DNA from: Botryllus schlosseri
Lineage: Eukaryota
Direction of reading: 5' to 3'
Length of the DNA: 64,000 nt
NCBI GenBank assembly: GCA_051294905.1
Contig: CM119371.1
Span: 24,864,001-24,928,000 of the forward strand
Positions 38,536 to 64,000 of the stretch are shown here, one piece after another. Below the pieces are notes generated by a model. That model saw nothing but the letters and a program-made list of their open reading frames with translations, ran no database searches and was not told where the DNA came from. The translations under genes were made by a program, and so were the position numbers. Every line of letters begins with the position of its first letter. Position 1 is the stretch's first letter.

Positions 38536-39107
38536 GTAAGTTTATTTAGTGTACAGAAGACGTGCATTGCTCTTATAACGAGTGAGTACACAGCACAAAA
38601 TTGGCTAATGAATTAGTGACCGACCCGTAGAATCTTGTAATGCTTGTGATCGCTGCAAGTAAAGCCCGCCTGTGGGGAACAATTGAAAAAAGCAGTTCAC
38701 ATCATTACAGCACACTAATAAAAATTGCAATGATAGTTAGGGGTATCCCGGCACAAGAGACGGGTAGGTCAAAATGAAGTTAATATCGAGGGCTATGCAA
38801 ATCAGTTCTGGATACGCCGCCATCGATAATACAGCTTGTACATTACATCGTTGGATTTCCTATAATAAATAGGAAACAATCCTAATTTCATTAAAAAGGT
38901 GTGAGAAGAATTAATCAGCAGATTCGTAGACATGATGCCTTTATCGAATGGACTTTGATCTGCGAAATTGCTACAACATTCGGTGATTTCTGCAAGGAAA
39001 TTCACCTCCTAACCTCATTGACATTTATTACATATATATATATTGCAATACATATGGTTATGGCGTGGTCGCTGTTCTTTGTGGTATTGATGGTGTTTCG
39101 ACTATAC

Positions 39108-39409
39108 CAGTGGTTTTCAACCTTTTTTTAGACACGCCCCTCTTTTTGATGGTGAAAAATTTCGCGCCCCCCCCCCTTATCGTCATATCACAAAATCCAA
39201 CCGGGATGCTAGCAACCCCAACAGATTGTTTGATGGCATGGAAGGTTATGGGTGTTGATAAGAGAATTAAAAATATGTAATGAGGTCTGTATATAGAGAA
39301 ACACACGTGAACAGGAGGCAAATCGCGCCAAGCGCGAAAATTTTTTCCAGTTGACCGCTTCTTCACGCCCCCTTCACTGCTTTCACGCCCCACAGGTTGC
39401 GAACCACTG
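39108..39409. mobile_element. ~300-bp hAT MITE
   Basis: TIRs cagtggttttcaacc / ggttgcgaaccactg; perfect TSD gactatac. Confidence 0.92.
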
Positions 39410-39772
39410 GACTATACTATGGTCATTTACACCTGACCGATATTCTTTAATTTTGATTCCGTCTCTGCCGACTTGTAGCACGGCCCACTTTTGGGCTTTC
39501 TATAAGACACCGCTTACGAGTGAGATAACAGGGTGAATGAATGCATGCGTTCGTCACAGCAGCTTTTAGGGATCGCCAAATTCAAAAATATTTAAAAATA
39601 ATTGCATGTATATCAGAGAATCAATATTTCATTGAATACCGGAATTTTACTGCTATTTCCTACGAATGGGGCAGATCGAGGCGCAAATATAGCATTATAC
39701 CAGATTGACTAGTCTCCTATTTGATTCATTCGCCTACGAAAGCTCCTCGTGCATATTAGACAATCTGATAAG

Positions 39773-40390
39773 TAGGGCGATTATTTTGACATGTCAAAAT
39801 TTTGTAAAAATAGTATCGTTAGGTGAAAATTTGTCAAAATTGTTCACAACGTCAAATTTCTTTTGACGTCTGCATCTCGTTTGTTTAGTTAATTTTGCAC
39901 TGTCGGTGAACTTATCATTTGATATTTTACAGCTTGTAGCCTAGTTCATAGGCCTACCGTTGGAAACGGCCAATTGTCTTCTCATTGAATCATAAACGGT
40001 CAAACAATACAAATAGGTAGACATGGTGTTATCATAGTGTCCTATACGGTGTCGACACAGGCAAATCTCACACCTCAGTGTAATTGTATCACGTCACAAT
40101 TTCCATTTGGCTACAGGCAATTTGACGGTCATTTTTGACCGCCCTGTCGAGCACTAAATTTGGTAAAACGGGTATCAATCGCAAGCTGACTTTGCACTGA
40201 TTACGGAAATATAAATTTTATTCCGCCCGTGGCCCTGGAACTCCCACAATCAGCCTCGAATTTTTCATTGTTATGGAGATTGGCATTGGGACGCCACAAT
40301 GCTGCCTGGCTCTATTTCTCTTGAGCTACTCTCTATTTTCGCCAGACAGCATTGTTGCGTCCCAATGCCAATCTCACTAACAATGAAAAA
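39773..40390. mobile_element. Unclassified interspersed element ending in a foldback
   Basis: 40030-40205 matches 11500-11675; 39775-40010 matches 63050-63300 inverted; 40240-40390 matches 14133-14279. Confidence 0.7.
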
Positions 40391-40451
40391 TGAATTCTTC
40401 ATCGGATGTACTCATGAATTCTTCATTGGATGTAAAGACAACCATATATCT
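40391..40451 (+). pseudogene. Broken LRR exon (3' remnant, paralog of 27529-27696)
   Basis: Reads EFFIGCKDNHIS; donor GTAAGT is replaced by ATAACT; 24-bp internal duplication; the 5' part is replaced by a repeat; the downstream intron matches 27697 onward. Confidence 0.8.
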
Positions 40452-40996
40452 ATAACTCGAAAGAATGTTCCTGAAAGCCGAATTGTTTAGATTGGGTGTG
40501 AATATCAGGGCGATTGTGATCTGTCGGTAGATTGCAAGATCCAATCGAGAGTCACAAAATACAAACCATATGACTTATTGGGTGAAAGGGCAATATTGAC
40601 AAGAATTTGTCATTACTCGTGGATTGATAGTCCACGGAGATTTCTGCATTTGTTGAGTAGAAAGCGATTTACTAGTGATCACCCCCTGGTCTGAATCGGA
40701 ATAAAAGAAATAAAGCTACTTCAATATATCACATATGTAGTTGAAATTTGGTTTTTATTCATTCTGAATATGCATCGGTCCATGATCTAGTTTGAACACT
40801 ACATAATATATATCATTTCCTATATAAAGTCAGATATAATCGCAATTTGATGTAAGTTGAGTTTCGGGGCATGAGAACACAAACCCACAAATTACCGGAC
40901 ATGACGATATCTAGAGTTCGCCATTTCGTCGACATCTTTGATGCTAGATTAGCCATCATACGACTTGGTTAACTTCATCTAGCCTACGCCATATAC

Positions 40997-41698
40997 CAGG
41001 GGTGGGCAATTCTTTATCTAGCTAGCCAAATTAAAAGCAGGAAATACGTTGGCGGGCCGAGTCAAAAATGTGAATGATATTCTGCGGCATATTAGTTGTT
41101 ATAAATTGACACAGTGAATTACATTGTTCATACATGCTTCCCAGTATTTGTATTGATATTAGGACATGGGAAAGTGACGGGTAATAATATCATAATTCAT
41201 AACAACGGTAACATCATAACTTTAAACTATATTTTATTGCACAGACACGTTTTTCTAGTAAGACATAGAAATGAATTTAGGATACTACAATTCCTGTCTT
41301 GGTCACCGCCTCCCAAGTAGGATGTAGCTTGGTGAAATAGCCTTGTTGCTGATGGAAACTAGCAGTGTTTTCCAAATTCGCCCCCCCCTGGCCGAGTGTC
41401 TATCTTCGTGTTTTTTGTCATCAAACAGACCTAAAATATACTCCACTGCGACCTGCTCGCAACAGACTAAGATGATGGGTTCACCTCTGACTCCAGTATA
41501 CAAATCTATTTTGGAATTTCGGCAGTCGGCCCGCACCTTCCATTCTTGGCATGCCGCGAAAATCGATGATCGCTTATGGGCGGGATGACTGATCAAGCAC
41601 AGACACTGGACACTGATTGACATGTTTTACTAATTGGGGACTTGCAAATGTATCACGTAACAATTTGGATTGGGCGGGCTGGGTGCCTGAGACCGCTG
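40997..41698. mobile_element. hAT non-autonomous element
   Basis: Starts caggggtgggcaa, ends gagaccgctg; TSD ccatatac / ccatatag. Confidence 0.7.
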
Positions 41699-43014
41699 CC
41701 ATATAGGGCTATAAAAAGGATTATATCGTAACCTTGTGTGGTACATGTGTCTCTGCGCACGCGAAAAACAGACAAGTTCGAAATAATTGCAGTCGCCAGC
41801 AAATACATTTGTTAAGAAAAAAACATGAAAATTGCTAATTCTATTGCTAGTCCGTGTAAGCTTTGATCATTTTCTACGTTTGTCACATGCTGAAAATTTC
41901 AGATGTAAACTATGTAACAAAGTATGAAGGGTACGGTGAACTGTTTCCAGAACTGGACTTGATTGCTAACGAATAAAACGGCGTCCGTTACCTTGGCTTT
42001 GAAGACCGCAATGATCAGAGAGTCTCTGGAGTCAATATTAACGGACCATGATTGTATTCGTATTGCTAAATCTACAGTTCCTTATAAACCGGAATCACAT
42101 TTGATTATTTTACAACGTTCAATCGTTAATATTCTAACTGTAGACATTCTATAGCGATCATTATATTCTACCCGTCATATCATTAATAGTATTCCTTTTA
42201 TTAAAAGTTTATGCAAACATATGAGTAGTAAGGTTGGATCAAATATACGCCCCGCCCCTCAGGCTATTTAGAATGTAAACACTCTCATAATATAATTAAC
42301 GTCGGACTATGCCTGGTCCATGCTTCCGAGAAATAAATAACATTCATAATACGTTGGATGATACTTTCCTTAGATATTCTAATATGTGTATTTAGGACTA
42401 ATATTCTAATATGTGTATTTAGGACTAATGCGACAACTTCGAAAACGCGTACTGAGCTGTTTTAGGAATATGAACACTATGTATTGATAATAACTTGCCT
42501 CCGAGAAATGCCACGTCGAAGTGATCTTTGTGGATTTGAACTAACTATTGCGTAAACGTGATATACTAAATTGTTTTTTGAATTTCAATACCGATTCTCC
42601 ATGTGTATTTAGCAATATGTATTGATAATAACTTGCTTCCGAGAAATAAATAAAAACACGAGTCCAGATTCCGTTAAGTGAATTATTTTTAGGTATTAAT
42701 CTTTACGAAAAATTGACGTAGTTCCAATAATACACTATATTTTAATTTTTAAAAATTACTAATCCGCGTGAGTCGAGGTTTTCTTAAGTAAATTATTTTC
42801 TTATTGTCTCCACATTTTTCCATACCAGTTTTTGAGAATATGAATTCTCGCGTAACACACTAAATGTTGACTCCCCATGAGTCGAGATGTCGCTAAGTAA
42901 TTTATCAACTACGCATGATTTTATGTGAATTTCATCGATGGTGTCCGAGTTCTATATGACATAAGTACAATTCCAGCATCGGTATTTGCAATAAATCCGA
43001 AAAATTAGGTTCGC

Positions 43015-43355
43015 ACCTTTTCGCAATTTATGCAGCTATTCGCGCAGACTTTGCCGCATTTGCTGTATCTGAAGTAGAGTTTCAGCGTCGTTATTCGCTA
43101 TAAGCCGAGAAATGCACCTTCGCGCAATTTATATAGCCAAACGCATTAACTTTACTGCATCTGAAGTAGACTTTCAGCGTCGTTATTTGTTATAAGCCGA
43201 GAAATGTACCTTCGCGCAATTTTTACAGGCGGTCTCACACAGTTTGCTGCGTCTGAAGTAAAATTTCAGCGTCGTTGTTTGCTATAAGCCGGGAAATTAG
43301 AGTCGCTGCTTCGCATCATTTTACAGGCAGTCTCACACAGTTTGCTGCATCTGAG
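43015..43355. repeat. Tandem repeat, ~92-bp unit, 3-4 copies
   Basis: Recurring tctgaagtag..tttcagcgtcgtt..tataagccgagaaat. Confidence 0.85.
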
Positions 43356-43975
43356 CTTCATACTAATACATGCATAATTTTTGCATGACGAGAATACGGG
43401 TAATACGGTCAATAAACGCCGGAGGCGAGTCATTTGAACCTTGTTGCTAGATAATACCGCTTTCGGCTACAACAAAGTTGCCCTGCAACAAAAAATAGAA
43501 GCCCTAATGATCATGCAGAGGAAAGTTCAATTATACATCGAATTATTCGAATAGACTATCTACATTGTGTAGGTATGAAGTGAAATAGAACGGAGTTCAC
43601 GCAAAAGTTGCTATTGATCATATACCAAGCTTGCTTTCAGAGCTGGAAACTAAATGCATATGAAAATTTACCTAGGTTTTCCCCGCACGCATCAAATGTA
43701 GGCCTACTCAAGTGTTTATGAGGTGGCGAATAGTAGGTTGTTGGCATGCAAGGACGTCACATAGAATTGTGGAGTTTTCTGTAAACTATAATCCAGTGAT
43801 CTATTTTCAATCACTATATTTTTCAATAATCTAAACTAAGTACTGTTAGTAGGCAAACCCTAGGAAAGTATCCTCTGATAAAAGCAGGAGTAATTTGTTA
43901 TCCGTGAAATTAATAGATGGTGCGCAATATGAGCGGTGCCGCGATGACTGACAAATACTTTGAAATAATGTATAG

Positions 43976-44176
43976 AATGTTAGGAGCGAATATAGTAGAA
44001 AGTTCACGTCTGGACATCTGTAAGCAGGTGCGCATACTACCGTAGTAAAACGCATAACAGAATTCACGCGGGTGCTGCTATAATGTTAGGAGCGAATATA
44101 GTAGAAAGTCCACGTCTGGACACCTGTATGCAGATGCGCATACTACCGTAGTAAAACGCATAACAGAATGCACGCA
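43976..44176. repeat. ~106-bp tandem duplication with a third copy near 44620
   Basis: aatgttaggagcgaatatagtagaaagt...cgcataacagaat is repeated. A separate 52-bp duplication lies at 44373-44474. Confidence 0.85.
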
Positions 44177-44937
44177 AAATTCGATATTACTTTGTGATGA
44201 TTTTGATGTTGTTCCATACCGATTGGGAAGATAGGACTCCTAATTTCCTAACTAACTACATAACCCCTAGTAACATAGTCGGACGCATAACGGAATTTAC
44301 GCAAAATCGGTATTGCTCTGCGATAATTTTGACCACTACGATTCGAAATATTGTTAACTAACTTATGTTTTCGACATAAGATAAGCGTGTAGTGTACAAA
44401 TTTCGATGTTGCGCAAATACCACAGACATAAGATAAGCGTGTAGTGTACAAATTTCGATGTTGCGCAAATACCACGATTTTACATCGAATTATTCGAATC
44501 GACTACGTACATTGTATAGGTATGAGGTGAAATAAAACGGATTTACGCAAAAGTTCGACACTAAAACGTCGACGGTGTCTTATAAAGTAATAATGTAAGC
44601 TGCGATGGATGCTGCTATATAATGCTAGTAGCGAATATAGTAGAAAGTCCGCATCTGGATGAATGTAAGCAGGTGCGCTTAGTAACGTAGTAAATCGCAT
44701 AACAGAATTTACATAAATTGCTACTTCTACCTTAATTTAATGGATTTATCTGAGATCATTGCTTTACTTAATCTCTCCAAAATGTGCATTATACAAGTAC
44801 GTCACCATCGAAACCATCTACCTATAACTAGCTGACAGTATAATTGTAGGAAATACTCGAGTACTAATTTTAAAGTAACTTAGATATCTAAATGAGCTCT
44901 GAGTCGTTGTTATCTCGCATCTTGTACTTGTATTCGC

Positions 44938-45202
44938 ACTTTACCTTTACACGTCGTTTTTGTATAATGGATACTAATTTTATTAAAAATACACAAAAAG
45001 CGCGAAAAATACATTTTATCCCGGAACGGAGCAAGAAAATGCGTATGAATTTTGTAAAGTAGATATTATATTCTATTATGTGTATTTAGGGCTAATGCGA
45101 CATCACTATGTTAGCGACAGGCCTGTTCGCTCTTTTTATTTTTTATTTTTTCAATAAAATTAATATTCATTTTACAAAAAACGTCGTGTAAAGGTAAAGT
45201 AC
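44938..45202. repeat. Imperfect inverted repeat, arms about 70 bp
   Basis: actttacctttacacgtcgtttttgta versus tacaaaaaacgtcgtgtaaaggtaaagt. A direct copy of the left part is at 45565-45675. Confidence 0.8.
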
Positions 45203-45949
45203 TTGTACATTTCGTAGTGCTCAAGTATAAGTTTTTAAAGTATTAACTTGATAAAATTTTCAGAATAGAGACTTTTGCGTAAAGTCTGTCTTGCATTTAG
45301 TTATTCATGTTCTGAAGTCTCATACATGCACCGACTCTGTGCATTCAATGTGGGGGGTAGCTGACTTGGAGACAGAAAAACACACATATTTGACCGTAAC
45401 ATGGTCTTAGTATGAACCGACATGCATTCGACTTGTGGGAAAATGTCTCGCATACTATTTCACCGAGATTACAACCCTTTCACGGATATCCGTTGGTGCT
45501 ATCGATACGGTGAACAGCACGTTATGTATAGCGATATCTCCACAGTCAAATACGCGAACCATGCACGTTTTTGTAAAATGAATACTAATATTATTGAAAA
45601 AATAAAAAATAAAAAGAGCGAAAAATTACATTTTATCCCGGAACGCAACAAGAAAAATCGTATGAATTTGTAAACTACTTATTCATGACATAATAATAAT
45701 TCTACTTGTACACTTTTTCACACTTTATAACACTTTAAGTAGTACTTAACAGTTTCAGTTTTAAATAAAATACGGAATATAAACTAATCGAAAAATTCGG
45801 TTACCAATTTCGCGTAGGCTATGCATACAAATGAGGAAAGTTACATCAACGCGTGTTAACTAGTTGTATCGAGTTATCGAATGATTTTTTTCTTTACATC
45901 AAAATAACTAGAGTGTGTAACTACATTAAAAACGTATCTAAATGAGCTC

Positions 45950-47115
45950 CAGGTCATTGTGATTATGCAGCATACCAAATTTCATCACACATTTCATGAT
46001 GGAACAACTTTAAAACTAACGCAGTTCTATAGCAACTTTTGCCTAAATCTGTTTTCGGCAGCATGTACATATCCATAGTCAGCTTTAATAACAGAATTAC
46101 CATACTAATATGTGACTCCTCACCTTGAAACTTGGTACGTAGTTGTAGGACATTGTGATTATGCAGCATACCAAATTTCTTCACGCATTTCATAATGGAA
46201 CAACTTTAAAACTAACGCGGCTCTACATCGACTTTTTTGCGTACATCTGTTTTGCGGGAGCGTATAGCACGTACCTATACATAGTCAACTTTAATAACGG
46301 AATTACCATGCTCAACATTGAATCCCAACTCTAAACTTGATTCGTAGTTGTAGGACATTGTGGCAATGCACCATGCTAAATTTCATCGCACATCTAATGA
46401 TGGATCACCTTTAAAACTAACGCAGTCGAATACCGACTTTTAAGCATATCTGTTTTGCGTGAACATAGCATATACCTATGCATAGTCAATTTTAATAGCA
46501 GAATTACCGTGTTAAACATTGAATTCCCACCCTGAAAGTTGGTACGCGATTATAGGACACTATAACAATGCACCATACCAAATCCAATCACACATTTCAT
46601 GATGGAACAACTTTAAAACTAACGCGGCTCTACATCGACTTTTTGCGTATATCTGTTTTGCGGGGGGGGGGGGGGGGCGTATAGCACGTACTCATACATA
46701 GCTAACTTTAATAACGGAATTACCATGCTTAACATTGAATCCCAACTCTAAACTTGATACGTAGTTGTAGGACATTATGGCAATGAACCATGCTAAATTT
46801 CATCACACATGTAATGATGGAACACCTTTGAAACTATCGCATTCGAATACCGACTTTTACACATATCTGTTTTTCGTGAACATAGCATATACCCATACAT
46901 AGTCAATTTTAATAACAGAATTAGCATGCTAAACCTTAAATTCTCACCTTGAACGTTGGTACCCAGTTGTAGGACATAATAACAATGCACCATACCAAAT
47001 TTCGTCAGGCATTTCATGATGTAACACTTTCAAAACCAACGCAGTTCTATACAGGCTTTTGGCTAAATCTGTTTTTCCGTAGCGTAGCACGTACCTATAC
47101 ATAGTCAACTTTAAT
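45950..47115. repeat. Satellite-like tandem array, ~200-bp unit, about 6 copies
   Basis: Units begin near 45953, 46147, 46352, 46553, 46769 and 46971 (aggacattgtg..atgcaccataccaaatttc..atagtcaactttaata..aaacttggtacgtagttgt). Confidence 0.9.
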
Positions 47116-47121
47116 ATCAAT

Positions 47122-48022
47122 ACATGTTTATCGTAAGTCCTACACAGTCATGATATCCGGCCGAGTTTGACTTTTAGAAAACATTATACCGACATCGCGA
47201 CATCTTACAAAATTGAAACCGCGGTGACTGCTTGAGAGACCTACCAGTGATATCGCGGTAATCTAGTTACTTCCACAAAATAGTATGTATTCAACTTACT
47301 TTCCACAAATCTAACGCGCAAAACAATTTACTTTGCTAACGAAAAGTACTGAGTCATCATATCATTATCCACGCAACAATACACCTAAAACATACTATCG
47401 TACAAAATGGTCGCTAACCTCTTTGTGCACCAGCTGTAAATCTCACAAGCAACAAGTTTCAAGATTCCAGTTATTGAAAAAATGTTAAAGTGTTTCTCCT
47501 GCGCCAAGTCGTTATGTTGACGAAAGCGTATATTGTAATATCATGATCGATTTGCATTCGTTGCTCACAAACTGTCACTACTCTAAATAATTATTTTTCA
47601 CTCAAACACAACAGCATACTTGTCGCCATTCGTTTTCATCAAGCACGAGTTCAATAAACTTACTTACTACGACATGAATTGGTATTTTTATGTTGTGTAA
47701 ATAGGTAATAATTAATTTTAGTAACACTATACCAACATCATCGAGTTGTGCGAATAGATTTACATGTGGTGTTATGGTTTTAATCGAAGTACACTGCACG
47801 ATCTAATGTAGAGTCATCTCTATTGTATAGCAACTCGGTAATCGAAATGCATGCATTAACATTTAAACAGCGATCGTGTTTCGTCACGCGAAAAATATGT
47901 TCACTACTGCGATACTCTGCACAGGGCATGCAAATCCTTTTCACATTCGTAATAGTATACCAACGGCTACCGGCGACAACGTTTAACAATACCAACGACA
48001 CTAAACATACGATACCTACCCA
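47122..48022. repeat. Diverged inverted copy of 55404-56288
   Basis: Colinear reverse-complement similarity with many substitutions; also a direct copy of 51659-52032. Confidence 0.85.
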
Positions 48023-49205
48023 ATCTGCAAATTGTTTCGATTTATTCTGTCTGTTTCAATTTAAGATAAGGAAGCCCATTTCACTCAATGTATCGATGCC
48101 TACGGTACTCTACAAAATTTTCTGATTAATTCGCCCTATGCTTATTTATCACAAGAAAGATGATTTGATACCTAAAGTACGAAATACTTTTTCGCTTGAG
48201 CTAAGCCGCAGCGCCTGGAGTGGAATTTTACGGGGTATGTGGACTCATTTCGTAGGGCTCTATGCCATAGGAGCATACTTTACGCTCCAATTCGATTCCC
48301 ACACATTCCATATAATTACTAACAGAACCATTGAGTACCAGCCTTGACATTTTCCGTAGTACTAGATGGCATGTATACAATTTCACGACATCCGACATTA
48401 CGACGAAGACTATCAAAATATCGAAAGAAGCCCTCTATTCTTTTCTGAAATAATCAAGGTTTTATCAGGAATTCCCTTCATATAAACTCCAGCAGAATCA
48501 CTAATAACCTCTCAAGTGTACTCAATTTACTCTAATTTGATACTCGTGTACCAAATCCCTATTTTCCGCAAGTATGATAGAGGCTATCGCTCGATACTCA
48601 ACGATTCGTAATTTTGCTGGAATACAAGTACAATTAGTTTAAAGTAGTTTGAGGTTACGTTTGTATCACCTCGACAAGTGCTATTATCAAAAAATGCTTT
48701 TGCTAAACTCTTACACTTTCACTAAACTTCTACACTGAATCTTGTAAAGTAGATAGAAAAGGAAAACTATTAACATTAGGTAAGTGAGAAGCACGCAAAT
48801 TTCGATTGCATACAAATGCCACAAACTGCGCTAACTTCCAGAGTTGTTAAGTATAGAAGTACTCGTACGTCTTGAGAATACCCAAGTAGGTTTTTTTGCC
48901 TACATGTACCAAATACTCTCAAGTCCTTATGATATTGGAGTACATCAACTTCATGATAGCTACAGTATTAAACAGAAATAGACCTAGAGTACTAACGTTT
49001 TTGTGCAGTGAGAGTTCGCAACTTATCGAAGTATTTTTGTTATTTTTATTGCGATAAGTCATTCTGCAGCGCAAAAAATGCGTCGTAGGATATAGATGAA
49101 ACTAGCACCACTCATCAAGACCGCTGATAACAGTACATTTCAACATTTAGTTGCAGTAAATTTCGAGTAAAGTACAAGAAGTGATGATTTCCGAGTGAGA
49201 TAAAA

Positions 49206-51558
49206 AGTAAGTATTGCAGGTATAGTTTACCTGAAAACCGAATACTCTGAAATAGAAGTAGATGCAGTGTAAATAGTTAATCACTTGATTAAGTATAGCG
49301 CAAGCAGATAAAACCTATACTTGAGTACTACAAAATACACGACTACTTCGCTATCGACTCCCTCCACGTAATAAGTGACTACGGTTTAAGACTGCTTTTA
49401 CCGATACTCGTCAGTTTCCGTTTTAGATAGAATTCGGAAACCAAATAATTTCATAAACATAAGCTAATTAAATGAATTTACTCGAATGTACTATGCCGCG
49501 CTGATAAGATTAATTATAATATACTTATCATGTTAGAGCGATTTTTCTAGCGTAGAAAATCTTTCAAATGTAGTAAGCAGGCCAATATGAAGATATTCGT
49601 TGAGCTGAATAAACATAAAAAATACTCTAGACGACTTTATCGGTACTTTACAGTTTCAGTTTTAGATAAAATTTGTCCCTTTCACTCCTCGCTATCTAAA
49701 CATGTTTAGAATATATTATTTGCGATGATACGAACCCGTAAAGTACTCAAGTAGCTTTTCGTTGGATATAGATGAAACTGACACCACTCACCAAGACCAC
49801 TGGCCCACTGACAAAAAGTACATTTCAACATTTTAGTAACAGTAAAGTCCTACTAAAGTACAAGAAGTCATGATTTCCGACTGAGTTAAAAAGTAAGTAT
49901 TGAAGGTATAGTTTGCTCGAAAACCGAAAAAACTCTGAAATAGAAGTAGATGCAGTGTAAATAGTCAATCACTTCATTTAGTATAGCGCAAGCAGGCCAA
50001 ACCTATACTTGAGTACTCCAAAATATACAAGTACTCCCTCCACGTAAAAAGCGACTAGGGTTTAGACTACTTTATCGGTACTTGACAGTTTTAGATAAAA
50101 TTTGGTGAGACTTTAAATTTAAAGTAGTTTGAGCTTACGTTTGTATCACCTTGACAAGTATCATTATCAGACATGAAAATGATACTATCACCTAATACAG
50201 AAGTTAACACACGTCAATGTGCTTCGGAATTCACGAGAAATTGCTTACTAAGAGAAGTATATTCTTGTATACACAATAGTGGAGAGAATCTTTAAAATGT
50301 AGTAAGCAGGGCGATGGGTATTCATTGAGTTGTATAAGCATAAAAAACATTCCCGCGCGCTCCTAAACCTAACACTTCCTACCCTACCACCTAATACTAA
50401 GACGCGCGCGGGAATGTTTTTTATGCTTATACAACTCAATGAATACCCATCGCCCTGCTTACTACATTTTAAAGATTCTCTCCACTATTGTGTATACAAG
50501 AATATACTTCTCTTAGTAAGCAATTTCTCGTGAATTCCGAAGCACATTGACGTGTGTTAACTTCTGTATTAGGTGATAGTATCATTTTCATGTCTGATAA
50601 TGATACTTGTCAAGGTGATACAAACGTAAGCTCAAACTACTTTAAATTTAAAGTCTCACCAAATTTTATCTAAAACTGTCAAGTACCGATAAAGTAGTCT
50701 AAACCCTAGTCGCTTTTTACGTGGAGGGAGTACTTGTATATTTTGGAGTACTCAAGTATAGGTTTGGCCTGCTTGCGCTATACTAAATGAAGTGATTGAC
50801 TATTTACACTGCATCTACTTCTATTTCAGAGTTTTTTCGGTTTTCGAGCAAACTATACCTTCAATACTTACTTTTTAACTCAGTCGGAAATCATGACTTC
50901 TTGTACTTTAGTAGGACTTTACTGTTACTAAAATGTTGAAATGTACTTTTTGTCAGTGGGCCAGTGGTCTTGGTGAGTGGTGTCAGTTTCATCTATATCC
51001 AACGAAAAGCTACTTGAGTACTTTACGGGTTCGTATCATCGCAAATAATATATTCTAAACATGTTTAGATAGCGAGGAGTGAAAGGGACAAATTTTATCT
51101 AAAACTGAAACTGTAAAGTACCGATAAAGTCGTCTAGAGTATTTTTTATGTTTATTCAGCTCAACGAATATCTTCATATTGGCCTGCTTACTACATTTGA
51201 AAGATTTTCTACGCTAGAAAAATCGCTCTAACATGATAAGTATATTATAATTAATCTTATCAGCGCGGCATAGTACATTCGAGTAAATTCATTTAATTAG
51301 CTTATGTTTATGAAATTATTTGGTTTCCGAATTCTATCTAAAACGGAAACTGACGAGTATCGGTAAAAGCAGTCTTAAACCGTAGTCACTTATTACGTGG
51401 AGGGAGTCGATAGCGAAGTAGTCGTGTATTTTGTAGTACTCAAGTATAGGTTTTATCTGCTTGCGCTATACTTAATCAAGTGATTAACTATTTACACTGC
51501 ATCTACTTCTATTTCAGAGTATTCGGTTTTCAGGTAAACTATACCTGCAATACTTACT
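49206..51558. repeat. Palindrome 1: 1155-bp arms, 43-bp spacer
   Basis: 49206-50360 is the reverse complement of 50404-51558 (coordinate sums constant at 100764). The right arm runs into the gap. Confidence 0.95.
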
Positions 51559-51658
51559 NNNNNNNNNNNNNNNNNNNNNNNNNNNNNNNNNNNNNNNNNN
51601 NNNNNNNNNNNNNNNNNNNNNNNNNNNNNNNNNNNNNNNNNNNNNNNNNNNNNNNNNN
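51559..51658. other. Assembly gap (100 N)
   Basis: Run of N. Confidence 0.99.
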
Positions 51659-54600
51659 TTCAAGAAACCTGCTACGACATGAATTGTTATTTTGATGTTG
51701 TGTAAATAGGTAATAATTTATTTTAGTAACACTACATCAACATCATCGAGTTGTGCGAATAGATTTACATGTGGTTTTAATCGAAGCACACAGCGTATTC
51801 TAATGTAGAGTCATCTCTATTGTACAACAACTCGGTAATCGAAATGTGTTAACATTTAAACAGCGATTCTGTTTCGTCACGCGAAAAATATCTTTACTGT
51901 CGCAACACTCTGATACTCTGCACAAGATGTGTAAATCCTTTTCACACTCATAATAATACACTAACGGGATACCGACGTCAAGCAACAACGTTTACCAACA
52001 TCACTGACGCTGAACATACGATACCTACCCAAGTAAAAAATATCATTTTCACCAGGAGGTCAGCCGTTACCTGTGTACAATTACCATTTGCCCTTGGGGG
52101 TCTAGCGTTACCCGAGTAACAAAACCATTTTCACTTGGAAATATATGTTTTCCCTCAACAACAAACGTTTTTCACTTGGAAATATATTTTTTCCCTGGGT
52201 AACAAACCTTTTTCACTTGGAAATATATTTTTGCCCTGGATAACAAACCTTTTTCACTTGGAAATATATTTTTTCTCTTGGTAACAAACCTTTTTCACTT
52301 GGAAATATATTTTTTCTCTGGGTAACAAACCTTTTTCACCTGGGAATATATTTTTTCCCCGATCAACAAACCTTTTTTCACTTGGAAATATATTTTTTCC
52401 CCGAGCAACAAACCATTTTCACTGAGCAACAAACCCTTTTCTCCCCAGGCAACAAACCCTTTTCGTTTGGAAAACTATCATTTACCTGAGTACCAATACC
52501 ATTTTCGTTTTGAAAACTGACAACTACACCGGTCAATTTGATATTTTTTGTATATTGTTACAGCAGACAGTGACAAAATATACACCAACAACGACTCCGA
52601 TACATTTGCGTAATCAAATATTCACTTGCTCTGATGCATCCCATCAAAATCATTGGTTACTCACATACAATAACAATGTGCTGTTGTACATCGACATGTA
52701 TGTTTTCGGAATTGGCGAATAAAGGGGTTTCTGATATGTCCGCGATGTCCGGGTTCGTGCTTTAGATTTTCCAGAGTCAAAATGTCTGAATAAAACACCT
52801 CCTTGACGATGGTTGGTATGTGGATAACGGTGTTCGGAAAACGGTTGGATTTATGTCACCCATCGCGATAACAACTCCAGGTCGAGTTTTCCTCCCGCAT
52901 GTTTACTATATTGTGTCTTTATTGGTCAATGTATGTCTCGACATTCAGTTTGAAATCGGAAACCCTGATAAAGTACGTAACCGGATCCGGATATCAACTG
53001 TGAATCGATAAACCAATGGACAATATTCAAAGTAAACATGTTACACCCTGTGTTTCCACGAAAAAATACCATCCAGACATACGTCGCGCTTGTTTGCCCA
53101 CACCAGTATACGCGCAAATGGAGGTGTGTGACATTGCATGCAATGTGTTGGTATACAAACATCGATCCACAGACATTATCATGACCGGTAGTTTTGATGT
53201 AGATCGAATGTCACCTGATAACAATACCAATAAGCCACATTGCAATGAGTCCGCGCTATTACATCGATATTTCGGCACCGTTCACTGATTTACTCGATGG
53301 TGTTATCGTGTTGTAACATTACAAGATAGTCATGGCCCTATCTCCCGACAGATCACTCAGACCAATTGGATACATCGGTCAATGTGTTGTCGACACCGAA
53401 GTTTTCTGCTGCAGCGTTTGATCTAGGTGAACTATCGAAGTGGTGCTCGAAATGATTGCGATCAGTCTTTCAGTCACGATGCATGGATGTCGCTACTCCC
53501 ACATAACGACTCCAGACAAATATCGTGAACAGTGATTATGCAAATCTCGGACTGATACTGTGATCCAATAAGGTGTGTTTCTGTGGAATCTGCAATCGTA
53601 CACCGCAATAGAACACTACCTCGCGATTTCACACGCAATCATAAAACACACCTTCGTATGGGTCCAGTTCGTCCAGCGACATTGCAAAACGGTCATCGCC
53701 ACAAGAGATCGAGGTTGGTCTCGTCATATCGGAGTATTTTGAAACGACATCGTCACAAGGCTATTGACATCAATTCTGCTGGTCATATCGAAGAACATGT
53801 CAATCCGTTTCGCAATCCATCGTTTTTCGAGTCCCTGCACCATAGTGTTACGACACAGGCAAGAAGCGTCGGTGGAAATAATAAAACACGGAAGGCACAC
53901 TTTGGTGTTATTTGACATGGATTTTACACCCGACGAACCTCACATTCGAGCGATGCATTTGAATGGCGATTGTAATATTGATGTCCAGAGAAAAGAAATG
54001 TATCGATTTATTGGTTTCGTACATATCCAGCAAAAACCTGGGTTTATGATTGTGCACGGTTCGCATATTTGACTGTGAACACTCTACTGGTATATGCTGT
54101 ATAGTTCACTTCCACCGTCGTGCGAATACCCATGTTACGGTTTCTATGTTTGTGTGTCCGTATGTCATGCTTCAGATTGACTCAGAGTCATTGCAATGTG
54201 GCTTATTGGTATTGTTATCAGGTGACATTCGATCTACATCAAAACTACCGGTCATGATAATGTCTGTGGATCGATGTTTGTATACCAACACATTGCATGC
54301 AATGTCACACACCTCCATTTGCGCGTATACTGGTGTGGGCAAACAAGCGCGACGTATGTCTGGATGGTATTTTTTCGTGGAAACACAGGGTGTAACATGT
54401 TTACTTTGAATATTGTCCATTGGTTTATCGATTCACAGTTGATATCCGGATCCGGTTACGTACTTTATCAGGGTTTCCGATTTCAAACTGAATGTCGAGA
54501 CATACATTGACCAATAAAGACACAATATAGTAAACATGCGGGAGGAAAACTCGACCTGGAGTTGTTATCGCGATGGGTGACATAAATCCAACCGTTTTCC

Positions 54601-55777
54601 GAACACCGTTATCCACATACCAACCATCGTCAAGGAGGTGTTTTATTCAGACATTTTGACTCTGGAAAATCTAAAGCACGAACCCGGACATCGCGGACAT
54701 ATCAGAAACCCCTTTATTCGCCAATTCCGAAAACATACATGTCGATGTACAACAGCACATTGTTATTGTATGTGAGTAACCAATGATTTTGATGGGATGC
54801 ATCAGAGCAAGTGAATATTTGATTACGCAAATGTATCGGAGTCGTTGTTGGTGTATATTTTGTCACTGTCTGCTGTAACAATATACAAAAAATATCAAAT
54901 TGACCGGTGTAGTTGTCAGTTTTCAAAACGAAAATGGTATTGGTACTCAGGTAAATGATAGTTTTCCAAACGAAAAGGGTTTGTTGCCTGGGGAGAAAAG
55001 GGTTTGTTGCTCAGTGAAAATGGTTTGTTGCTCGGGGAAAAAATATATTTCCAAGTGAAAAAAGGTTTGTTGATCGGGGAAAAAATATATTCCCAGGTGA
55101 AAAAGGTTTGTTACCCAGAGAAAAAATATATTTCCAAGTGAAAAAGGTTTGTTACCAAGAGAAAAAATATATTTCCAAGTGAAAAAGGTTTGTTATCCAG
55201 GGCAAAAATATATTTCCAAGTGAAAAAGGTTTGTTACCCAGGGAAAAAATATATTTCCAAGTGAAAAACGTTTGTTGTTGAGGGAAAACATATATTTCCA
55301 AGTGAAAATGGTTTTGTTACTCGGGTAACGCTAGACCCCCAAGGGCAAATGGTAATTGTACACAGGTAACGGCTGACCTCCTGGTGAAAATGATATTTTT
55401 TACTTGGGTAGGTATCGTATGTTCAGCGTCAGTGATGTTGGTAAACGTTGTTGCTTGACGTCGGTATCCCGTTAGTGTATTATTATGAGTGTGAAAAGGA
55501 TTTACACATCTTGTGCAGAGTATCAGAGTGTTGCGACAGTAAAGATATTTTTCGCGTGACGAAACAGAATCGCTGTTTAAATGTTAACACATTTCGATTA
55601 CCGAGTTGTTGTACAATAGAGATGACTCTACATTAGAATACGCTGTGTGCTTCGATTAAAACCACATGTAAATCTATTCGCACAACTCGATGATGTTGAT
55701 GTAGTGTTACTAAAATAAATTATTACCTATTTACACAACATCAAAATAACAATTCATGTCGTAGCAGGTTTCTTGAA
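51659..55777. repeat. Palindrome 2: 1590-bp arms, 939-bp spacer
   Basis: 51659-53248 is the reverse complement of 54188-55777 (sums constant at 107436; mirrored ORFs in the track are identical). Confidence 0.95.
52110..52510. repeat. 41-bp minisatellite, about 9-10 copies (mirrored at about 54926-55326)
   Basis: Unit is approximately taacaaacctttttcacttggaaatatattttttccctggg. Confidence 0.92.
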
Positions 55778-58700
55778 CTCGTGCTTGATGAAAACGATTG
55801 GTGACAAGTATGCTTTTGTGTTTGAGTGAAAAATAATTATTTAGAGTAGTGACAGTTTGTGACCAACGAATGCAAATCGATCATGGTATTACAATATACG
55901 CTTTCGTCAACATAACGACTTGGTGCAGGAGAAACACTTTAACGTTTTTCAATAACCAGAATCTTGAAACATGTTGCTTGTGTGATTTACAGCTGGTGCA
56001 CAAAGGTTAGCGACGTTTTTTAATATAGTTCCACTTTCTAGTTGTTTTGATGTGAGGCTCGGTGCTTCTCGTTAGTAAAGTAAATTGTTTTGTGTGTTAG
56101 ATTTGTGGTAAGTAAGTCGAATACATACTCTTTTGTGGAAGTAACTGTATTACTGCAATATCATTGGTAGGTCTCTGAAGCAGTCACCGTGGTTTTAATT
56201 TTGAAAGATGTCGCGATGTCGGTATAATGTTTTCTAAAAGTTAAACTCGGACGGATATCATGGCTATGTAGGACTTACGATAAACATTATACTTATACAA
56301 CTTTGTTACAAGAACTATGATATTTCTGTAAGTGCTATAGTCGTGTGTTGGATTATTTGAATATTTAGATACGTAACCATTCGTATGAAAAAGTTCTTGT
56401 GACATCAGAACAGTTTGTAGAGTCAAACCATAACCATTCAGTTTCGTAGTGTGAGGATATCGAGTAAAGTCGATTACTTTGTGTGATGTAAATATCCTTC
56501 GTACTTTTGTAAGAGTTGTGAGGATGATCATTCGTATCCTACGAAGTAGCTAGTTGATACTACAAAATATTGAATGATCGCTAACACACTGAGTTCATAA
56601 CCCAAGATAGTGAAAATTGTGTACTCTTAGACTAACATAATTCGTATCCAGCAAAACGATAGACACCAAAGGTTCGATGGAGTTTAAATCTAGATTGTAT
56701 TAAGCGAAGTGATGAGTATCTCCAGTAATAAAGTCGAAACGATCAAAACAAATTTCTGTGTCTTGTAAAGAACTATTTGGTATGATATTACTTGAGTGTG
56801 TGACAATTCGTATCCGTCGAGGTTGAATGTTTAGCCATATCGAAATGAATCCAGATCACATGAAATATATATTGATCACAATAGAATCGACGAGAATGTT
56901 AACCACGTAGAGTGTGTTTGTTTAAAAGTTATCTCCAATACGGTTACTTCGATCGGTATTAATTCCATGTCATACAAAAACATGTAACCTTTGTACAGTT
57001 TCGTAGTACGGGAATATCGAGTGAAGTTGATTATTTTTGTGTGACGAAAATATCTTGTATTGGTATTGGACACTGGTTTCGTTACCCAAGTGAGTGAAAA
57101 TTGTTCTTGGCTGGACAGATATGATTAGTATTTAGAAAAAACGACTCACACCGATTAGGCGACGCTGTTTCCTATCCAATGACTGAGTGAAATTTCTCAG
57201 GGGTTTGATTTACCGAGGTAATTGTCGGCGATTCAATAACATACAAGTATATGGTCTTTTAGTGACTGATTATTGTGACGACATTTACTTTGACGAATGG
57301 CAATGGAAAAATGTCCAATTTCTCTGATCGTGTGCGTTGCACAAATAGTTCTAGTATGTAATCAGTGAACGTCATGTAAATTGACAACGACTCTCAGTAG
57401 TTTGGTTAGATGATGGAGGTTCAAATCGATATCGCTACTACAAACAGCAATACAAACACATTTTTGTAGATTTCAGTGTAGCGCACATTTCGATTTTATT
57501 AATGCTGAGAGGTTTCTGTATTACTCAAGTATAGTTGAATAGGTGATGCCTAGCAAACATATTCCAATTTACTTTTGTAATGATCAAAGTGAGTGTGAAA
57601 TGATGCGAACGGATTAAGCATTAATCAAATGGTGGTATGTCAATTCACCTAGTGTGATATCTTGACACCAGGTAATGCGCGAAAGTGTTTCAATTCTCAC
57701 CGACAATAAAGTATTGCGCCGGTTATTGTTCAACAAAGGAAATTGTTGTTTCATCTTTAGTCTTGTTTAATGCAGACATTTGTAAAATATTTCCTGATAT
57801 CCACAATACTCTGCGTGGTTTGTACCAAGGCTGAATAATTTTCCAATCGAGAACATTTTAGACACACCTAGTTTACAACTCAATATGTTAATAACAATGG
57901 TACTGAAAAGTTTGTTGCTGTCACAATAATCTTTACCACAACGCCGGGTCTAATTAACGCAAATAATTTAATAATCAAGTCATGATCAACTATTACATAT
58001 GTCAAATCAATGTGTCAATCCTTATGTTTACATCATGATAATTTTCAATATAACACCTGCGTTCGATTGTAAGAAATGAATTCTCAACATGTTGGGCAGA
58101 CTTTCAAATCTCGCATACTCAAACATATTATGTTAATCTCAAGTCGCCGGCGCCGAGAAGTAATTACTTTTATCTTACAAAATATACCGCATAGTAATTT
58201 CTTTGTCTCGCACAATAGTAACGACTTTTACAGTTGAACAAAAAAGATGTGTCGTAGGGATATGAATACAACCAAGCTTGTTAAGGATTTTGGATTGTGG
58301 TGATTACTCGCGTATAGTCTTGTCTACTTTTCATAATGATACTTTTTGCTTTGGTCGGGTAACGGATTGACTTGACAATGTTTTCGTGGTTGATTCTTTG
58401 AATATGGTAAGATGGTAAGATGTCGAGACGTAATACTATTTCGTTAGCTCAATTACAACAAAACATAACCAGCATTCAAATAATCCGTAAGCTACGAGTG
58501 GATTTAAAACTTGATGCTGTTTTGTGGTTAACTCAAGTCAGTGGTCATATTTGTGTTGATTTCAGGAATGATCATGACGAGTTGGTCGGGTAAATTAGTG
58601 GTAGTAACTATGACCGTACAGAGTTGCTGACATTCAAACATCTTTTACGCTGTAATATACGTATTTTATTGCGATAAATTATTTCTCAGTTATTGTTCAG

Positions 58701-60079
58701 ACATTCAAATCTCGTATACTCAAAATATAATATGTTTATGTCAAGTCATTTATGTGTCGATTAGTAAATAGCTTACTTTGTCTTCAGAATAGTAACGACC
58801 TTTACAATTGAATAAAAAAGACCGATCATACGAATACAACCAGGATGAATTAATTCAAATTTGTGAGTTGCAGTGATATAATCAAGTAAGTGAAAACTGG
58901 ATTTTGAACACTTGTTAATGTTGTAAATAATTCTTTTGAGTATGGTAAGATGTTAAAATGTCGCTTTGACAAACGAAAAGTCGGATCGCGAATAGAGTTG
59001 CAATGTTCCATTACTTGTTTAGAATCAATGTGCGTATAATATCAATATGGGACTGTGGGAAAGTTGATGGTCATGTTTGTCAATCCTATTTCAATTCACA
59101 CTACGCCAAAGTCAAAATATTTCGTTTCGGATTATCTCAATTTACCTTTAGTACATCCGCGAATGGATTTAAAGTTGGTAAATTACCAAAATGATTGAAT
59201 ATTATCGGGTTAGAGATAGTTGATATTGATTCTATAACTGTTAAAACAGCGGCGTGCAATGTGTGAATAATTCAATGTGACTGAAAGTCGGTGTCAGTAA
59301 TATTCAGATTACGGTCGAATCAAAAGATCCCATTAAAAAGATTTCTCAAATTAATTAGAATTGTACCGAATTAAAACATTCAGATACGAATCAACTTGAG
59401 CTGTGTAGTAAGTTTCATTCCATTCAATTGATACATTGCTTGAATATTCGCATGATTCTTATCATACAACTAAAGTCAAACACGGACAAAGTGTCAAAAA
59501 CATATAGCGACCATACCAGAAAGTGTCAAATTGTTGGTTTACGAATCACCGTCTGCGACGACTCTGTGACAAACTAATTACGGAAATATTACCTTGTGAG
59601 CGGGCATGAGGGATCGCTTTGTCTGAAGCATTACCCTGTGAGTGTCGTAGGATTTTAAAATGATATCACACCCTTTTGAATAAGCGTTCACTTCACAAGG
59701 ATTAGGGTTAGAGCGGAAATAAGTGACAATTTGTCGCTATTCAAGTTACCGACACTGGCGGTCTGTTATTCGTTACTTATTAAATCGTACGAGTGAAATC
59801 AAGCTCTGTGCCAAACTGCTTACGAAAATTTCACCGCGTGAGCGATCGATATGCCTGTAACATCAAGTCGCGTATGTCTGAGACATTATCTTGTCAGCGA
59901 ACGCAGGGTTTGCAAACTATTTCACACCTATTTGGTGTGTTAATATGTGAACGCGGCTATTGTTGGTATTGGAATCACCGTCTACGCCGGTTCCGTGGTA
60001 AACTAATAACCAAGCGACTGATTCCTAGATTCAGCAAACTATTTCACACCCTTTTTGCTGAAAGTACGACATGCCACCC

Positions 60080-60595
60080 GCAGTCTATACCGAAAGTACG
60101 AATCACGACCGCACCCATAAGACGCAATAGCCGCTTGTGACCCCCGCCATAAGAATAACGATATATTGAAGTCGTAATCACCGTAAACGTTGGGATTAAC
60201 TCGAATCGGTGATATTTAACAATTTGTAATATACACATTATCTAACAAACAATCACGTGACTATTTACTATTCCTGATACATATTCAACACCGTGCCGCC
60301 GCCGCCTATACCCGAAAGGGCGATTCATGACCGCACCCATAAGAACACATGGCGAGTCACCAGAGACCGCGTAAGAATACATGACAGGCGAATCACCGCC
60401 ACCGCCTATAGTAAAAAAGGCGAGTCACCAACACGAGTTTTCGCGGCGAGTCACCGACGCAGCCTATACCTGAAAGGGCGAATCACGACCGCACCCATAA
60501 GAACACATGGCGACTCACCAGCGATAGGGGGGGTCGAAAAGGGCGAATCACCAACACGAGTTTCGCGGCGAGTCACCAGCGGGCCCATAAGCCAC
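60080..60595. repeat. GC-rich subterminal repeat array (GGCGA[A/G]TCACC; ACCGCACCCATAAGA)
   Basis: Repeated motifs with a ~158-bp higher-order unit (60305 and 60463), directly before the terminal ACTACT. Confidence 0.85.
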
Positions 60596-60628
60596 AATGG
60601 CACACCACGAGCGATCTATATAACTACT

Positions 60629-62308
60629 GACATCAGTTGGATGAATTTGAGGATCAATCCAAGACTGTTGAAAAGAAAATACTTGTTTTAAAAATTTGCT
60701 ATACAAGGGAACCATTCAATATTCGAACAGCTTCTTCGAGGTACAAAACTTCAATATAAAATTGAATAGTATATGCATATTGAAATGTGCCCAAATATTT
60801 TTGGCTGAGACTCGTCAGGGGTAATCATCAGCAACTAGTAGAGAATTCAAAAGATCGTTGTATATCAACAATCGTATCACAAAATATGACGTCACCCGCA
60901 TTCAGTATTCACGCAGATATCAGACTGGATACAATTGTATGTGACAAAAGGGTGTCTTTCATAGAACAATTATTTGATGGAATGGAAAGTTGCATGTGAC
61001 CTTTCCACCAATTTTACTCCAGCACGGGTAGCATACTTTCCTGGATTGTTAATCATTTTAGTGAAATTTTACCAGCAAACATTCATAAAAATAACCTAAT
61101 GCAGCAGAATCAAATTTATTTTCTAAGGATATGCCAGCTTACTTAAGAAACACTGCGATGCTTACCAGTATTTTAAACACCAAATACATTTCAAAATGGT
61201 GCCAATTGCAATACATACTACCTGAACATTAGGGCATTTTCATATTCTTTCCATCAGCCGCAACCCAGGCTTGATGAGTCCCTCATTCGTGGCGTGCCAT
61301 GGCGGCTCCATCTTTTTACTGGTCAAATCCAAATGCTGCTCCTAGAAAATATGATAAATACCAAAGGAAAATTGTAAATATTATGAAGAAGTAAATATAA
61401 ATATTTCACACAGGTAGGTTACAGAAGCGCAAGAGAGGTGCTCAGCCCCCCAGGTTGAGAACCACTGACCTAGCCCATTATAGCTCAGTAAGCAATAGTT
61501 AAAGTACAAGTTAGATGAGCTCATTACGTTCAACTACATCTCTGTTCAGTGTTCAGTGTACACTGTACAGTGTACACAGATGAAGCCTTTTTCAGCTCAT
61601 ACCGAATAGTCCGTAGGCTACTCTGCGAGATAGTTCGTGAGAAAAGTAGGGCTGCAAAAACCAGGAAATTACATAATCAATGGTGATATAAAAAATAAAT
61701 AAATAGGCTTACATAATCATATGTATCCATGGGTTCTTGAGACAAAGGTCTGTATCGCATAAGATGACTGTGCCGGCACAAAACCCGTTACGAACGACTC
61801 CTCAGTCCTCACGTCACTGTCAACATTGTCTGATAGCGCAGGCACGGTAGATCCAGGGGACTCCTTTCAAAGACTCGACATCAGTTGGACGAATTTGAGG
61901 ATCAATCCAAGACTATTGAAAAGAAAATATATGTTTCAAAAATTTGCAGTACAATAATGAACTACTCAGTAATCACGTAGATATCATACTGAATACAGTT
62001 GTTGTTTTCTGCAATAAGTTCTGTGTCACAGAAGGGTGTCTTTCATAGAATAATTAGGTAATGAAATGGAAAGTTGCACATGACGTTACCACCAGCACGG
62101 GTAGTATACTTCCTGGATTGCTGACAATTTTAGTGAAATTTTATGAGCAAACATTCATAAAAATCTTTATCACGAAGATAACCGAATGCAACAGACTCAA
62201 ATTCATTAAGGATATACCAGTTCAATTACAAAACACCGTGATGCTTACCAGTATTCCCTACAGGAAATGCATTTCAAAAAGGTGCCAATTTCAATACATA
62301 CTACCTGC
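60629..62308. repeat. Direct duplication: 60629-61224 and 61877-62308
   Basis: Both start gacatcagttgga.gaatttgaggatcaatccaagact and end caatacatactacctg. Confidence 0.9.
60725..60898 (-). mobile_element. Solo Penelope terminal-repeat insertion with a mutated hammerhead
   Basis: Homologous to 15570-15705; flanked by cattcaatattc / cattcagtattc; absent from the 61877 duplicate. CTGACGA is kept but GAAA has become AAAA. Confidence 0.75.
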
Positions 62309-64000
62309 AAAATAGAGTTTAGTTCAGTTACCGTATCATAATAAACTCAGGAAAGTCAAATTTGAGGATTGGGCAAAACAAATATTACCCCTTGTGATCC
62401 ATGGTTTGTTGAAAAGATTGTTTGTTTGGCTGTGCTGTTATTGGGGCAATTTTGTGGACCTAAAAATGGAAGATTTTGACCAAAAAATCAACATTCACAC
62501 ATATTTTGACGATAAAAAACTTAATTTTGACCCCATGTACTTGAATTAGGTGTTTCTGATATAATGTTAGAATTGTACTACCGGTACTTATCTTTATTTC
62601 TGGCTGGAGCTGTCTGTTCTTCCAAAGTAGTTTGACCTAAAAAATATCTTTTGGCAAGAAAACTGACAAATTTTTACATGAAGAAACCTTATTTTATCGA
62701 AATCTAGACCCATGAAGAATTCCAGTATTAGTTACATCTCGTATTATGGTAGAAATAATTAAAACTTTGTTGTAGTATAACGAAAGATACTTTCCCACAT
62801 TTTCGGGTAGAAAGTGTATGTCCTTACTAAGTAGCTTGGCAAGAATGGAGAAAAAACGTTCACCAGCAGCAGTTGTTGGCCGTCAACATTGAAGTTGTGG
62901 GTACACTGCAGGTGACACACCGTGTTGCTTCAATGTGACAAAGTTGTCTACATCGCAATTTTTCATCATACGGTTTCTAATAGAAGAACCAATGCCCACG
63001 CAATCTTGCTTCAGTTAGGATACTTCAGTAGGCTACGTTGAGCATTTATTTCATTTGACAGTTTCTGATTCACAATGAGCAGACGATGGTCCGTCTACAA
63101 CGGTAGAGCTATAAAGTAGGCTACTAGATGTAAATTGTAAAATGATAAGTTCACCGACAGTGCAATCATCTATGATACAAACGAAATGCAAGTTGCCAAA
63201 AAAAATTTTGACTTTGTAAACAATTTTTGCAATTTTAACCTAACGGTACAATTTTGACAACATTTTGACCTATTTTGACATGTCAAAAAAACTGTCTTAG
63301 TTAAAACCTTGCCACTTGGAATAAACAGTACAGTGTAAAATGTGTTGCAGTTGAAAAACCATCAAAACCGTTGCATGACTGTCATACCGGTATTCAATTG
63401 CTGAAATTGCAGTACTTGTCCACAATGGACCACAATATCGCCTACATAGGGATATTTCAGTGTGGATAGAGAGAACATCCCTTTATCTATACGTCAAAAA
63501 GTTAGTTGGATATCAGCTTCCCATCAGTACCGTAGTACTGGACCTGGTCGCAGCCTGTTATATTATCAGATTCCGAGCTCGATCATCCAGCAATAAGATC
63601 GGACGAATCATATACTAGAAAACTTCCAAAGAACATTCATATGAATAAGGGATATCAGTAGTCTACTAAAACATCTAAAACAAACGACCTTATTGCCATG
63701 TCAAAACGAGCTCATTTTATGACTATTCTCACATTACATATATTCAATAACATTTACCGCATTTCCATACCTTACAGTACACGGATGTTATGATCCTATA
63801 CGCCATCAGGTAGCAGAAACTGCTTCAATATATCCATTCCGCCAAGTCTGTTCGTGTACCCTACTCTCTGCCTGAAGCCTGACGAACCACCAATTCAAAT
63901 TCCAAACTGAAATCGAGCGTGCTCTACCGTAACGAAGGTGGTGACCCCTCTGCGTCACATGGAAATATGTATATTTTGTTCAAATATTACCCTTAAACTT

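Follow-up and report, generated by a model that had tools for sequence, protein, structure and literature searches.

What does the 18.4-kb block at positions 42224 to 60628 of a 64,000-nucleotide stretch of the Botryllus schlosseri genome (GCA_051294905.1, contig CM119371.1, positions 24,864,001 to 24,928,000; hereafter the window) represent? The original prediction, made from the sequence alone, described it as one gene-less Polinton/Maverick-like element, non-autonomous or defective and possibly a recombinant of two families. We report here that the block most likely consists of the cut-off halves of two different hairpin elements, A on the left and B on the right, joined at an assembly gap. 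Owing to this gap, two insertions that are real and young were taken for a single element.

Two fold-backs meet at an assembly gap

Inside the block, near its middle, there is a run of 100 Ns (51559-51658), the only one in the window. To the left of it, 49206-50360 pairs over its whole length as an inverted repeat with 50404-51558 (1155/1155), turning on a loop of 43 nt. To the right, 51659-53248 pairs in the same way with 54188-55777 (1590/1590); here the loop measures 933 bp and there is one mismatch, at 53249. Both pairings end exactly at the Ns. Palindromes had been noticed in the block before, and they are indeed present and perfect; the gap at which they stop had been missed. No similarity was detected across the gap (local alignment scores of 17-18 versus a shuffled mean of 17.8), and the two sides differ in composition (GpC 1.21 in A versus 0.78 in B). 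Common to A and B are only one 47-bp match and a 900-bp module of 85% identity, which sits 3.5 kb from the gap and has the same orientation in both elements when the arms are followed inward from their respective ends. This module has sharp edges; in A it adjoins the 200-bp array and in B the 41-bp one (Table 1). The similarity may be a sign of module exchange between the two families.

If each fold-back continues as a mirror image, the left contig would end inside the second arm of A, the next contig would begin inside the first arm of B, and the gap would hold the remainder of these arms, both inner ends and the partners of the target site duplications (TSDs). Mirror arithmetic, based on outer arms of 8,137 bp (A) and 6,444 bp (B) of which only 1.16 kb and 1.59 kb, respectively, are paired in the window, predicts full sizes of 16,317 bp for A and 13,821 bp for B and a missing sequence of 6,982 plus 4,851 bp (at least 11.8 kb), plus any host DNA between the elements. 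The mirror of neither outer arm was found elsewhere in the window, indicating that A and B are not nested here; nesting of A in B or of B in A was therefore rejected. Recombination through the shared module was also rejected, as the module does not lie at the join.

Ends and edges of the block

AGTAGT at 42224, the GC box CGCCCCGCCCC at 42248 downstream of it and ACTACT at 60623-60628 were all found as originally described. The alignment of the two ends gives out past about 7 bases, in agreement with the earlier statement that they do not match beyond 6 bp, and no terminal match between the arms of A and B was found that could serve as a terminal inverted repeat (TIR) of the whole block. The adjoining hexamers, CATATG on the left and GACATC on the right, are unlike, so that a block taken as one element lacks a 6-bp TSD, again as stated previously. 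Both the unmatched ends and the absent TSD are explained by the truncation of two elements at the gap, and the agreement of the block with Polintons in size is a by-product of the same gap. Taken singly, A and B form fold-backs that are perfect over the paired stubs, with their partner ends predicted to lie within the gap.

With 25 copies of AGTAGT and 18 of ACTACT in the window, the motifs alone carry little weight. The right end is nevertheless strong because ACTACT abuts a homology breakpoint: homology with the second host copy at 61877 begins exactly at 60629, a coincidence with a chance of about 18/64,000 per position, which upholds the sharp right boundary claimed before. A composition change point was uninformative for this end. 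At the left edge, composition changes at 42048, with a flat optimum from about 41800 to 42400 (about 600 bases), and 42224 is the sole AGTAGT from 37840 to 45738.

Matches to flank repeats covered none of the 18,405 block bases versus 17,322 of the 45,595 flank bases. Ends of hAT-like miniature inverted-repeat transposable elements (MITEs) were located at 5511/5799, 12161, 39108/39397 and 61455 and nowhere within the block, so the reported lack of hAT MITEs in the block between MITE-rich flanks was borne out. The description of the block as built from arrays of 41, 92, 106 and 200 bp was only partly correct: arrays with periods of 41, 92, 106 and 202 bp exist, yet together they amount to 2,614 bp or 14% of the block. 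An Rfam scan of 41000-62000 and a tRNA search gave no matches.

Element B belongs to a dispersed repeat family

The region 53222-64000 was compared with 4 of 24 sequencing runs, namely the contigs of X1, X3 and X13, the last of which bears a different organism label, and one raw RNA run. Depth was evaluated in 17 arm bins, 6 flank bins and 2 loop bins after 5 of 30 bins had been dropped (2 at junctions, 3 at host-repeat peaks). The median summed contig depth of the B arm, a measure that does not equal copy number, was 8.5x, 6.3x and 6.4x that of the flank in X1, X3 and X13, and the loop bins reached 3.9, 2.4 and 0.7; in X3 and X13 the ranges of arm and flank bins overlap at their lower and upper limits, respectively. 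Depth over the arm of B was thus raised in all three contig runs. Together with diverged relatives in the database, these results show that B is a dispersed multi-copy family.

Two database gene calls, which do not depend on this assembly, bear on the architecture of B: P0006 crosses from the arm into the loop at its left end, and P0005, which includes the same peptide of the arm, enters the loop at its right end. Since both arm/loop junctions are crossed, the fold-back plan of B is present in other, diverged copies. At positions 54417, 54460, 54704, 55427 and 55441 the letter of the window is the minority in the runs, and all five positions fall in the exactly mirrored part, indicating that both arms carry this copy's own variants. 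In the RNA run, about 6% of which was read, bins lying wholly within B reached at most 3.8-fold depth on either strand, and the loop gene described below had a depth of about 1 or less. The terminal pattern of B had no matches in viral contigs, and its two metagenome matches were dismissed as chance 19-22-mers without wider similarity. A short GATTAGGGTTAGAG stretch at 59700-59715 in the B arm appears telomere-like by eye only.

The loop of element A

The 43-nt loop of A contains a single G and is closed by CCCGCGCGC, one of three runs of G+C of at least 8 in the arm. Its alignment with (CCCTAA)n, which we take to be a telomere-type repeat and which was picked after the loop had been inspected, outscored all 2,000 shuffles, and among 2,604 sampled 43-mers of the block just 1 scored as high. 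The hexamer ties for best among 696, and three heptamer units do better; when any hexamer is allowed, 3 of 300 shuffles attain the score. On this basis, the loop looks like a decayed telomere-type repeat. Sequence comparison revealed no copy of the B loop gene in A, and neither the terminal pattern of A in metagenomes nor its loop stem in viral contigs gave a match.

Two G-rich sites were recorded besides. A run of about 16 Gs at 46661-46677 lies within the 200-bp array and is missing from the other units, and a G-rich stretch at 16711-16830 scored 34-37 against the telomere-type repeat in the minus-strand comparison, the sole other place in the window to do so.

A loop gene in B and missing core genes

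The description "gene-less" did not hold, as the loop of B contains an intact 91-aa open reading frame (ORF; 53797-54072) with full-length relatives. Six relatives with 56-84% identity and a common start could be aligned with one single-residue gap overall. They lie on contigs of 0.67-2.0 kb, and the Logan contigs of 922-1,117 bp have about the size expected if inverted arms cut the unique loop out of the assembly graph. A structure model based on 7 sequences predicted an eight-strand all-beta protein (pLDDT 70; one of five models confident). HSP20/alpha-crystallin and CS domains, which are likewise small all-beta folds, fill most top rows in three structure libraries; the best match reached only a Z score of 5.0 (root mean square deviation 3.4, 63 aligned residues) and an E value of 0.016 or worse, Foldseek gave no match at E ≤ 0.001, and no sequence match was found in Pfam or the PDB. 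The predicted likeness to HSP20/alpha-crystallin is thus a lead and not an assignment.

The 91-aa protein matched none of 97 candidates from viral contigs, had no usable match in Atlas and nothing under E 0.17 in PHROGs, and a weak 34-residue match to 1 of 89 candidates from prokaryote genomes was judged to be due to chance. Further gene candidates were discarded: P0008, for which only a weak match to an insect repeat protein was seen; the minus-strand loop reading P0001, whose matches P0003 and P0004 shift frame and read W at TGA (pTM 0.15); and a 90-aa arm ORF at 53016 with just two frame-shifted relatives.

A search of the interior for Polinton proteins had been proposed, and none of the core genes was matched. 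With stops read as X, all 12 frames of A and B contained no Pfam family at E ≤ 0.05, hence no protein-primed DNA polymerase B (pPolB), integrase, ATPase, protease or capsid and no transposase remnant; the same scan recovered the reverse transcriptase of a flanking LINE at 2.8e-30, and Pfam may be without models for certain capsid and accessory genes. Across 41000-62000, 77 ORFs of at least 60 aa were listed, and of 47 block ORFs scanned singly none had a match above the curated cutoffs. By core-gene membership, A and B are not Mavericks.

Comparison with known systems

The excerpted text of PMC8097293 describes vertebrate Mavericks as elements of 12.7-24.6 kb with (AGT)2//(ACT)2 ends, 6-bp TSDs, TIRs of 46-1,447 bp and eight core genes. 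A and B resemble them in the 5'-(AGT)2//(ACT)2-3' motif at each outer end (PMC8097293), in predicted sizes of 16.3 and 13.8 kb, which fall in this range, and in a sharp insertion edge. They differ in predicted arms of 8.1 and 6.4 kb, far above the TIR lengths given in PMC8097293. They also carry none of the eight core genes and have almost no unique interior.

Foldback elements such as FB and Galileo have long inverted, subrepeated arms around a short loop and TSDs of 9 and 7 bp, respectively. This plan is seen in the paired stubs of A and B, from which the full arms are extrapolated; the Maverick-type ends, predicted arms that are several times longer and the lack of a detectable transposase set them apart. 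In snap-back or copy-back defective viral genomes, which depend on a helper, one terminus is doubled as a near-whole inverted repeat. A and B would agree with these in the near-whole inverted repeat and in their presumed helper dependence, and they differ in being integrated in an animal chromosome, in their predicted size of 14-16 kb and in having long diverged into families.

Foldback elements are also mentioned in the available part of PMC6431247. In C. elegans, according to excerpts of PMC11414722, autonomous Polintons have left TIR-only and partial remnants, the TIRs measuring 744 bp. A and B are similar to such remnants as gene-free pieces with Polinton termini at rearranged loci; what distinguishes B is that it forms a repeated family, has a gene of its own in the loop and possesses arms of kilobase length. 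Whole-element palindromic Maverick satellites were not described in the literature searched, whose coverage leaves out most subscription journals, and the accessible portions of PMC8097293, PMC4196379, PMC6431247, PMC11414722, PMC11662393, 10.1101/2023.08.22.554363 and 10.64898/2026.07.13.738322 contain no whole-element palindromes of the A/B kind.

Proposed hairpin satellites and rival explanations

We consider it probable that A and B, separated by the scaffold gap, are satellites of Mavericks, built as hairpins and dependent on a helper. Both elements have retained the end signal without the enzymes, from which dependence on a helper would follow. For Polintons, a replication model derived from sequence analysis assumes that priming by a protein occurs at a short terminal repeat and that the single strand is shaped like a racket (excerpts of PMC4196379). 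Applied to A and B, the protein-primed polymerase of the helper would start at the AGTAGT end, and the displaced single strand would fold back on nearly all of itself, giving a duplex rod that has a new origin. One arm would then be rebuilt from the other as copying passes through the loop, and the integrase of the helper would insert this double-ended palindrome and duplicate 6 bp of the target. In effect, each element would carry one arm and a loop, with the arms reset to identity in every round. Such copying could account for identical arms with common private variants, because one arm is remade through the loop, and for cargo that is kept once, in the loop.

Several points weigh against this interpretation. 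The pairing of the 8.1- and 6.4-kb arms is extrapolated from pairs of 1.16 and 1.59 kb. Identical arms can also arise from polishing or fold-back reads, and polishing could equally yield private variants shared by the arms. The left end, that of A, is weaker than the right one, as it rests on motif and composition, and A is known from the assembly. In the case of B, no loose end or joint at 60628 was present among the minority of entries listed, and the runs are not from the assembled individual; in X1 the window letter is absent at 61386 and 61651. A helper with the same ends and the 6-bp TSD pair are what we infer, and a hexamer end motif is a weak pointer to the enzyme that moves an element.

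The doubts about A lead to an alternative in which B is a true hairpin and the fold-back of A is a contig-end artefact, caused by a fold-back read or a collapsed repeat, so that A would be an ordinary long non-autonomous element missing its right part. The palindrome of A stops at the contig end without a mismatch, and hairpins are known to disturb long-read methods, although the part of 10.64898/2026.07.13.738322 at hand concerns simple satellites only. On the other hand, the turn is not arbitrary, as it lies at one of only three G+C runs of at least 8 and encloses a patterned, non-templated loop of 43 nt. A loop patterned in this way may argue against a random fold-back read without excluding one, and we regard the artefact as unlikely.

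Nearly the same can be said of the possibility that both hairpins are foldback cut-and-paste transposons with a DDE transposase of the FB, Galileo or MuDR type and that their AGTAGT ends are coincidental. Very long subrepeated arms around a short loop fit the foldback plan, B carries GC-rich terminal subrepeats, and the window does not fix the TSD length. This reading would leave two otherwise unrelated elements sharing the commonest Maverick end motif, all 12 frames are free of a transposase remnant, and cut-and-paste alone leaves the private variants common to the arms unexplained; we judge it rather improbable. The idea contained in the original prediction, one real 18.4-kb element formed by recombination of two families and inserted or rearranged without a TSD, with only a small gap, seems very unlikely to us. 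In its favor, the 85% module indicates that the families have exchanged DNA, and palindromes are fragile in general, so that neighbours could fuse by deletion. However, the join coincides with the N run, the shared module lies far from the gap, across which no similarity exists, and a search of 30000-42223 for the host DNA that should precede GACATC, related to the sequence in front of 61877, found none. The part of that prediction that survives is the assignment of the ends to different elements that are non-autonomous, bear Maverick-type motifs and lack the core genes; the single defective or recombinant element does not, as the halves meet at an assembly gap.

Features and host flanks

Table 1. 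Features of elements A and B, the gap between them and the adjoining target site candidates
Feature	Position	Strand	Remarks
CATATG, candidate 6-bp target site of A	42218..42223	+	read in the sequence; role putative, partner copy presumed in gap
A outer arm, complete, 8,137 bp	42224..50360	+	AGTAGT end, GC box at 42248, diverged internal duplications
Arrays in A outer arm	within 42224..50360	+	periods 27, 92, 106, 52, 202
~200-bp array	45951..47116	+	5.7 copies, 74% matches
900-bp module in common with B	47124..48023	+	85% identity
43-nt loop of A	50361..50403	.	closed by CCCGCGCGC, one G, resembles decayed (CCCTAA)n
Stub of A second arm	50404..51558	-	exact reverse complement of 49206-50360, ends at gap
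100-N scaffold gap	51559..51658	.	11.8 kb or more, provided that A and B are complete
Stub of B first arm	51659..53251	+	reverse complement of 54185-55777, begins at gap
41-bp array in B first-arm stub	52111-52464		
933-bp unique loop of B	53252..54184	.	both junctions found in other contigs
Intact 91-aa ORF	53797..54072	+	conserved, predicted eight-strand all-beta, no family
B outer arm, complete, 6,444 bp	54185..60628	-	ACTACT end
41-bp array in B outer arm	54972-55410		
Module in common with A, in B outer arm	55404-56287		
GC-rich terminal subrepeats of B outer arm	60078-60577		
GACATC, candidate 6-bp target site of B	60629..60634	+	role putative; start of host segment, second copy from 61877

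The flanks contain several host repeats. LINE-type reverse transcriptase pieces at 17742-19064 (plus strand) and a zf-RVT-like piece at 16900-17568 (minus strand) seem to represent one partly inverted LINE (16900-19064). A 226-aa frame at 15705-16385 (minus strand) has a weak GIY-YIG match (E 0.015) and resembles the tail of a Penelope-type retroelement. A short host repeat occurs twice in the window (60738-60901 and 15571-15711), has many loose ends and gave the only RNA peak, which was about 40-fold on both strands. Across the start of the duplicated segment, a 64-aa frame at 61763-61957 without a Pfam match contains LDISWTNL, which to our eye resembles a leucine-rich repeat turn; a related stretch may have been the insertion site of B. 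Between 21000 and 34700, several kilobase-scale host segments are present in three to four copies each.

Significance

The locus alone adds little, since it comprises two truncated copies, and its leads are the loop protein and the telomere-like loop. It illustrates that hairpin elements break assemblies and can pass for recombinant elements. Going further, Mavericks in this genome might support several families of hairpin satellites, each consisting of an arm and a loop with the second arm remade in every round, so that the loop would be the sole free cargo space. The 91-aa protein encoded in the loop of B would then be under selection and form a beta-sandwich, and might serve as a chaperone-like packaging aid or a host modulator. 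The decayed telomere-type repeat in the loop of A could be a scar left when a broken end, once healed, folded back and gave rise to the family, with A and B swapping modules. We offer this wider scheme tentatively and would sooner expect it to fail than to hold. If whole-element hairpins with arm-shared variants are confirmed, they would be a natural readout of the folded single-strand intermediate of Polintons outlined in the excerpts of PMC4196379, and A and B would represent a new kind of virus-like satellite in animals.

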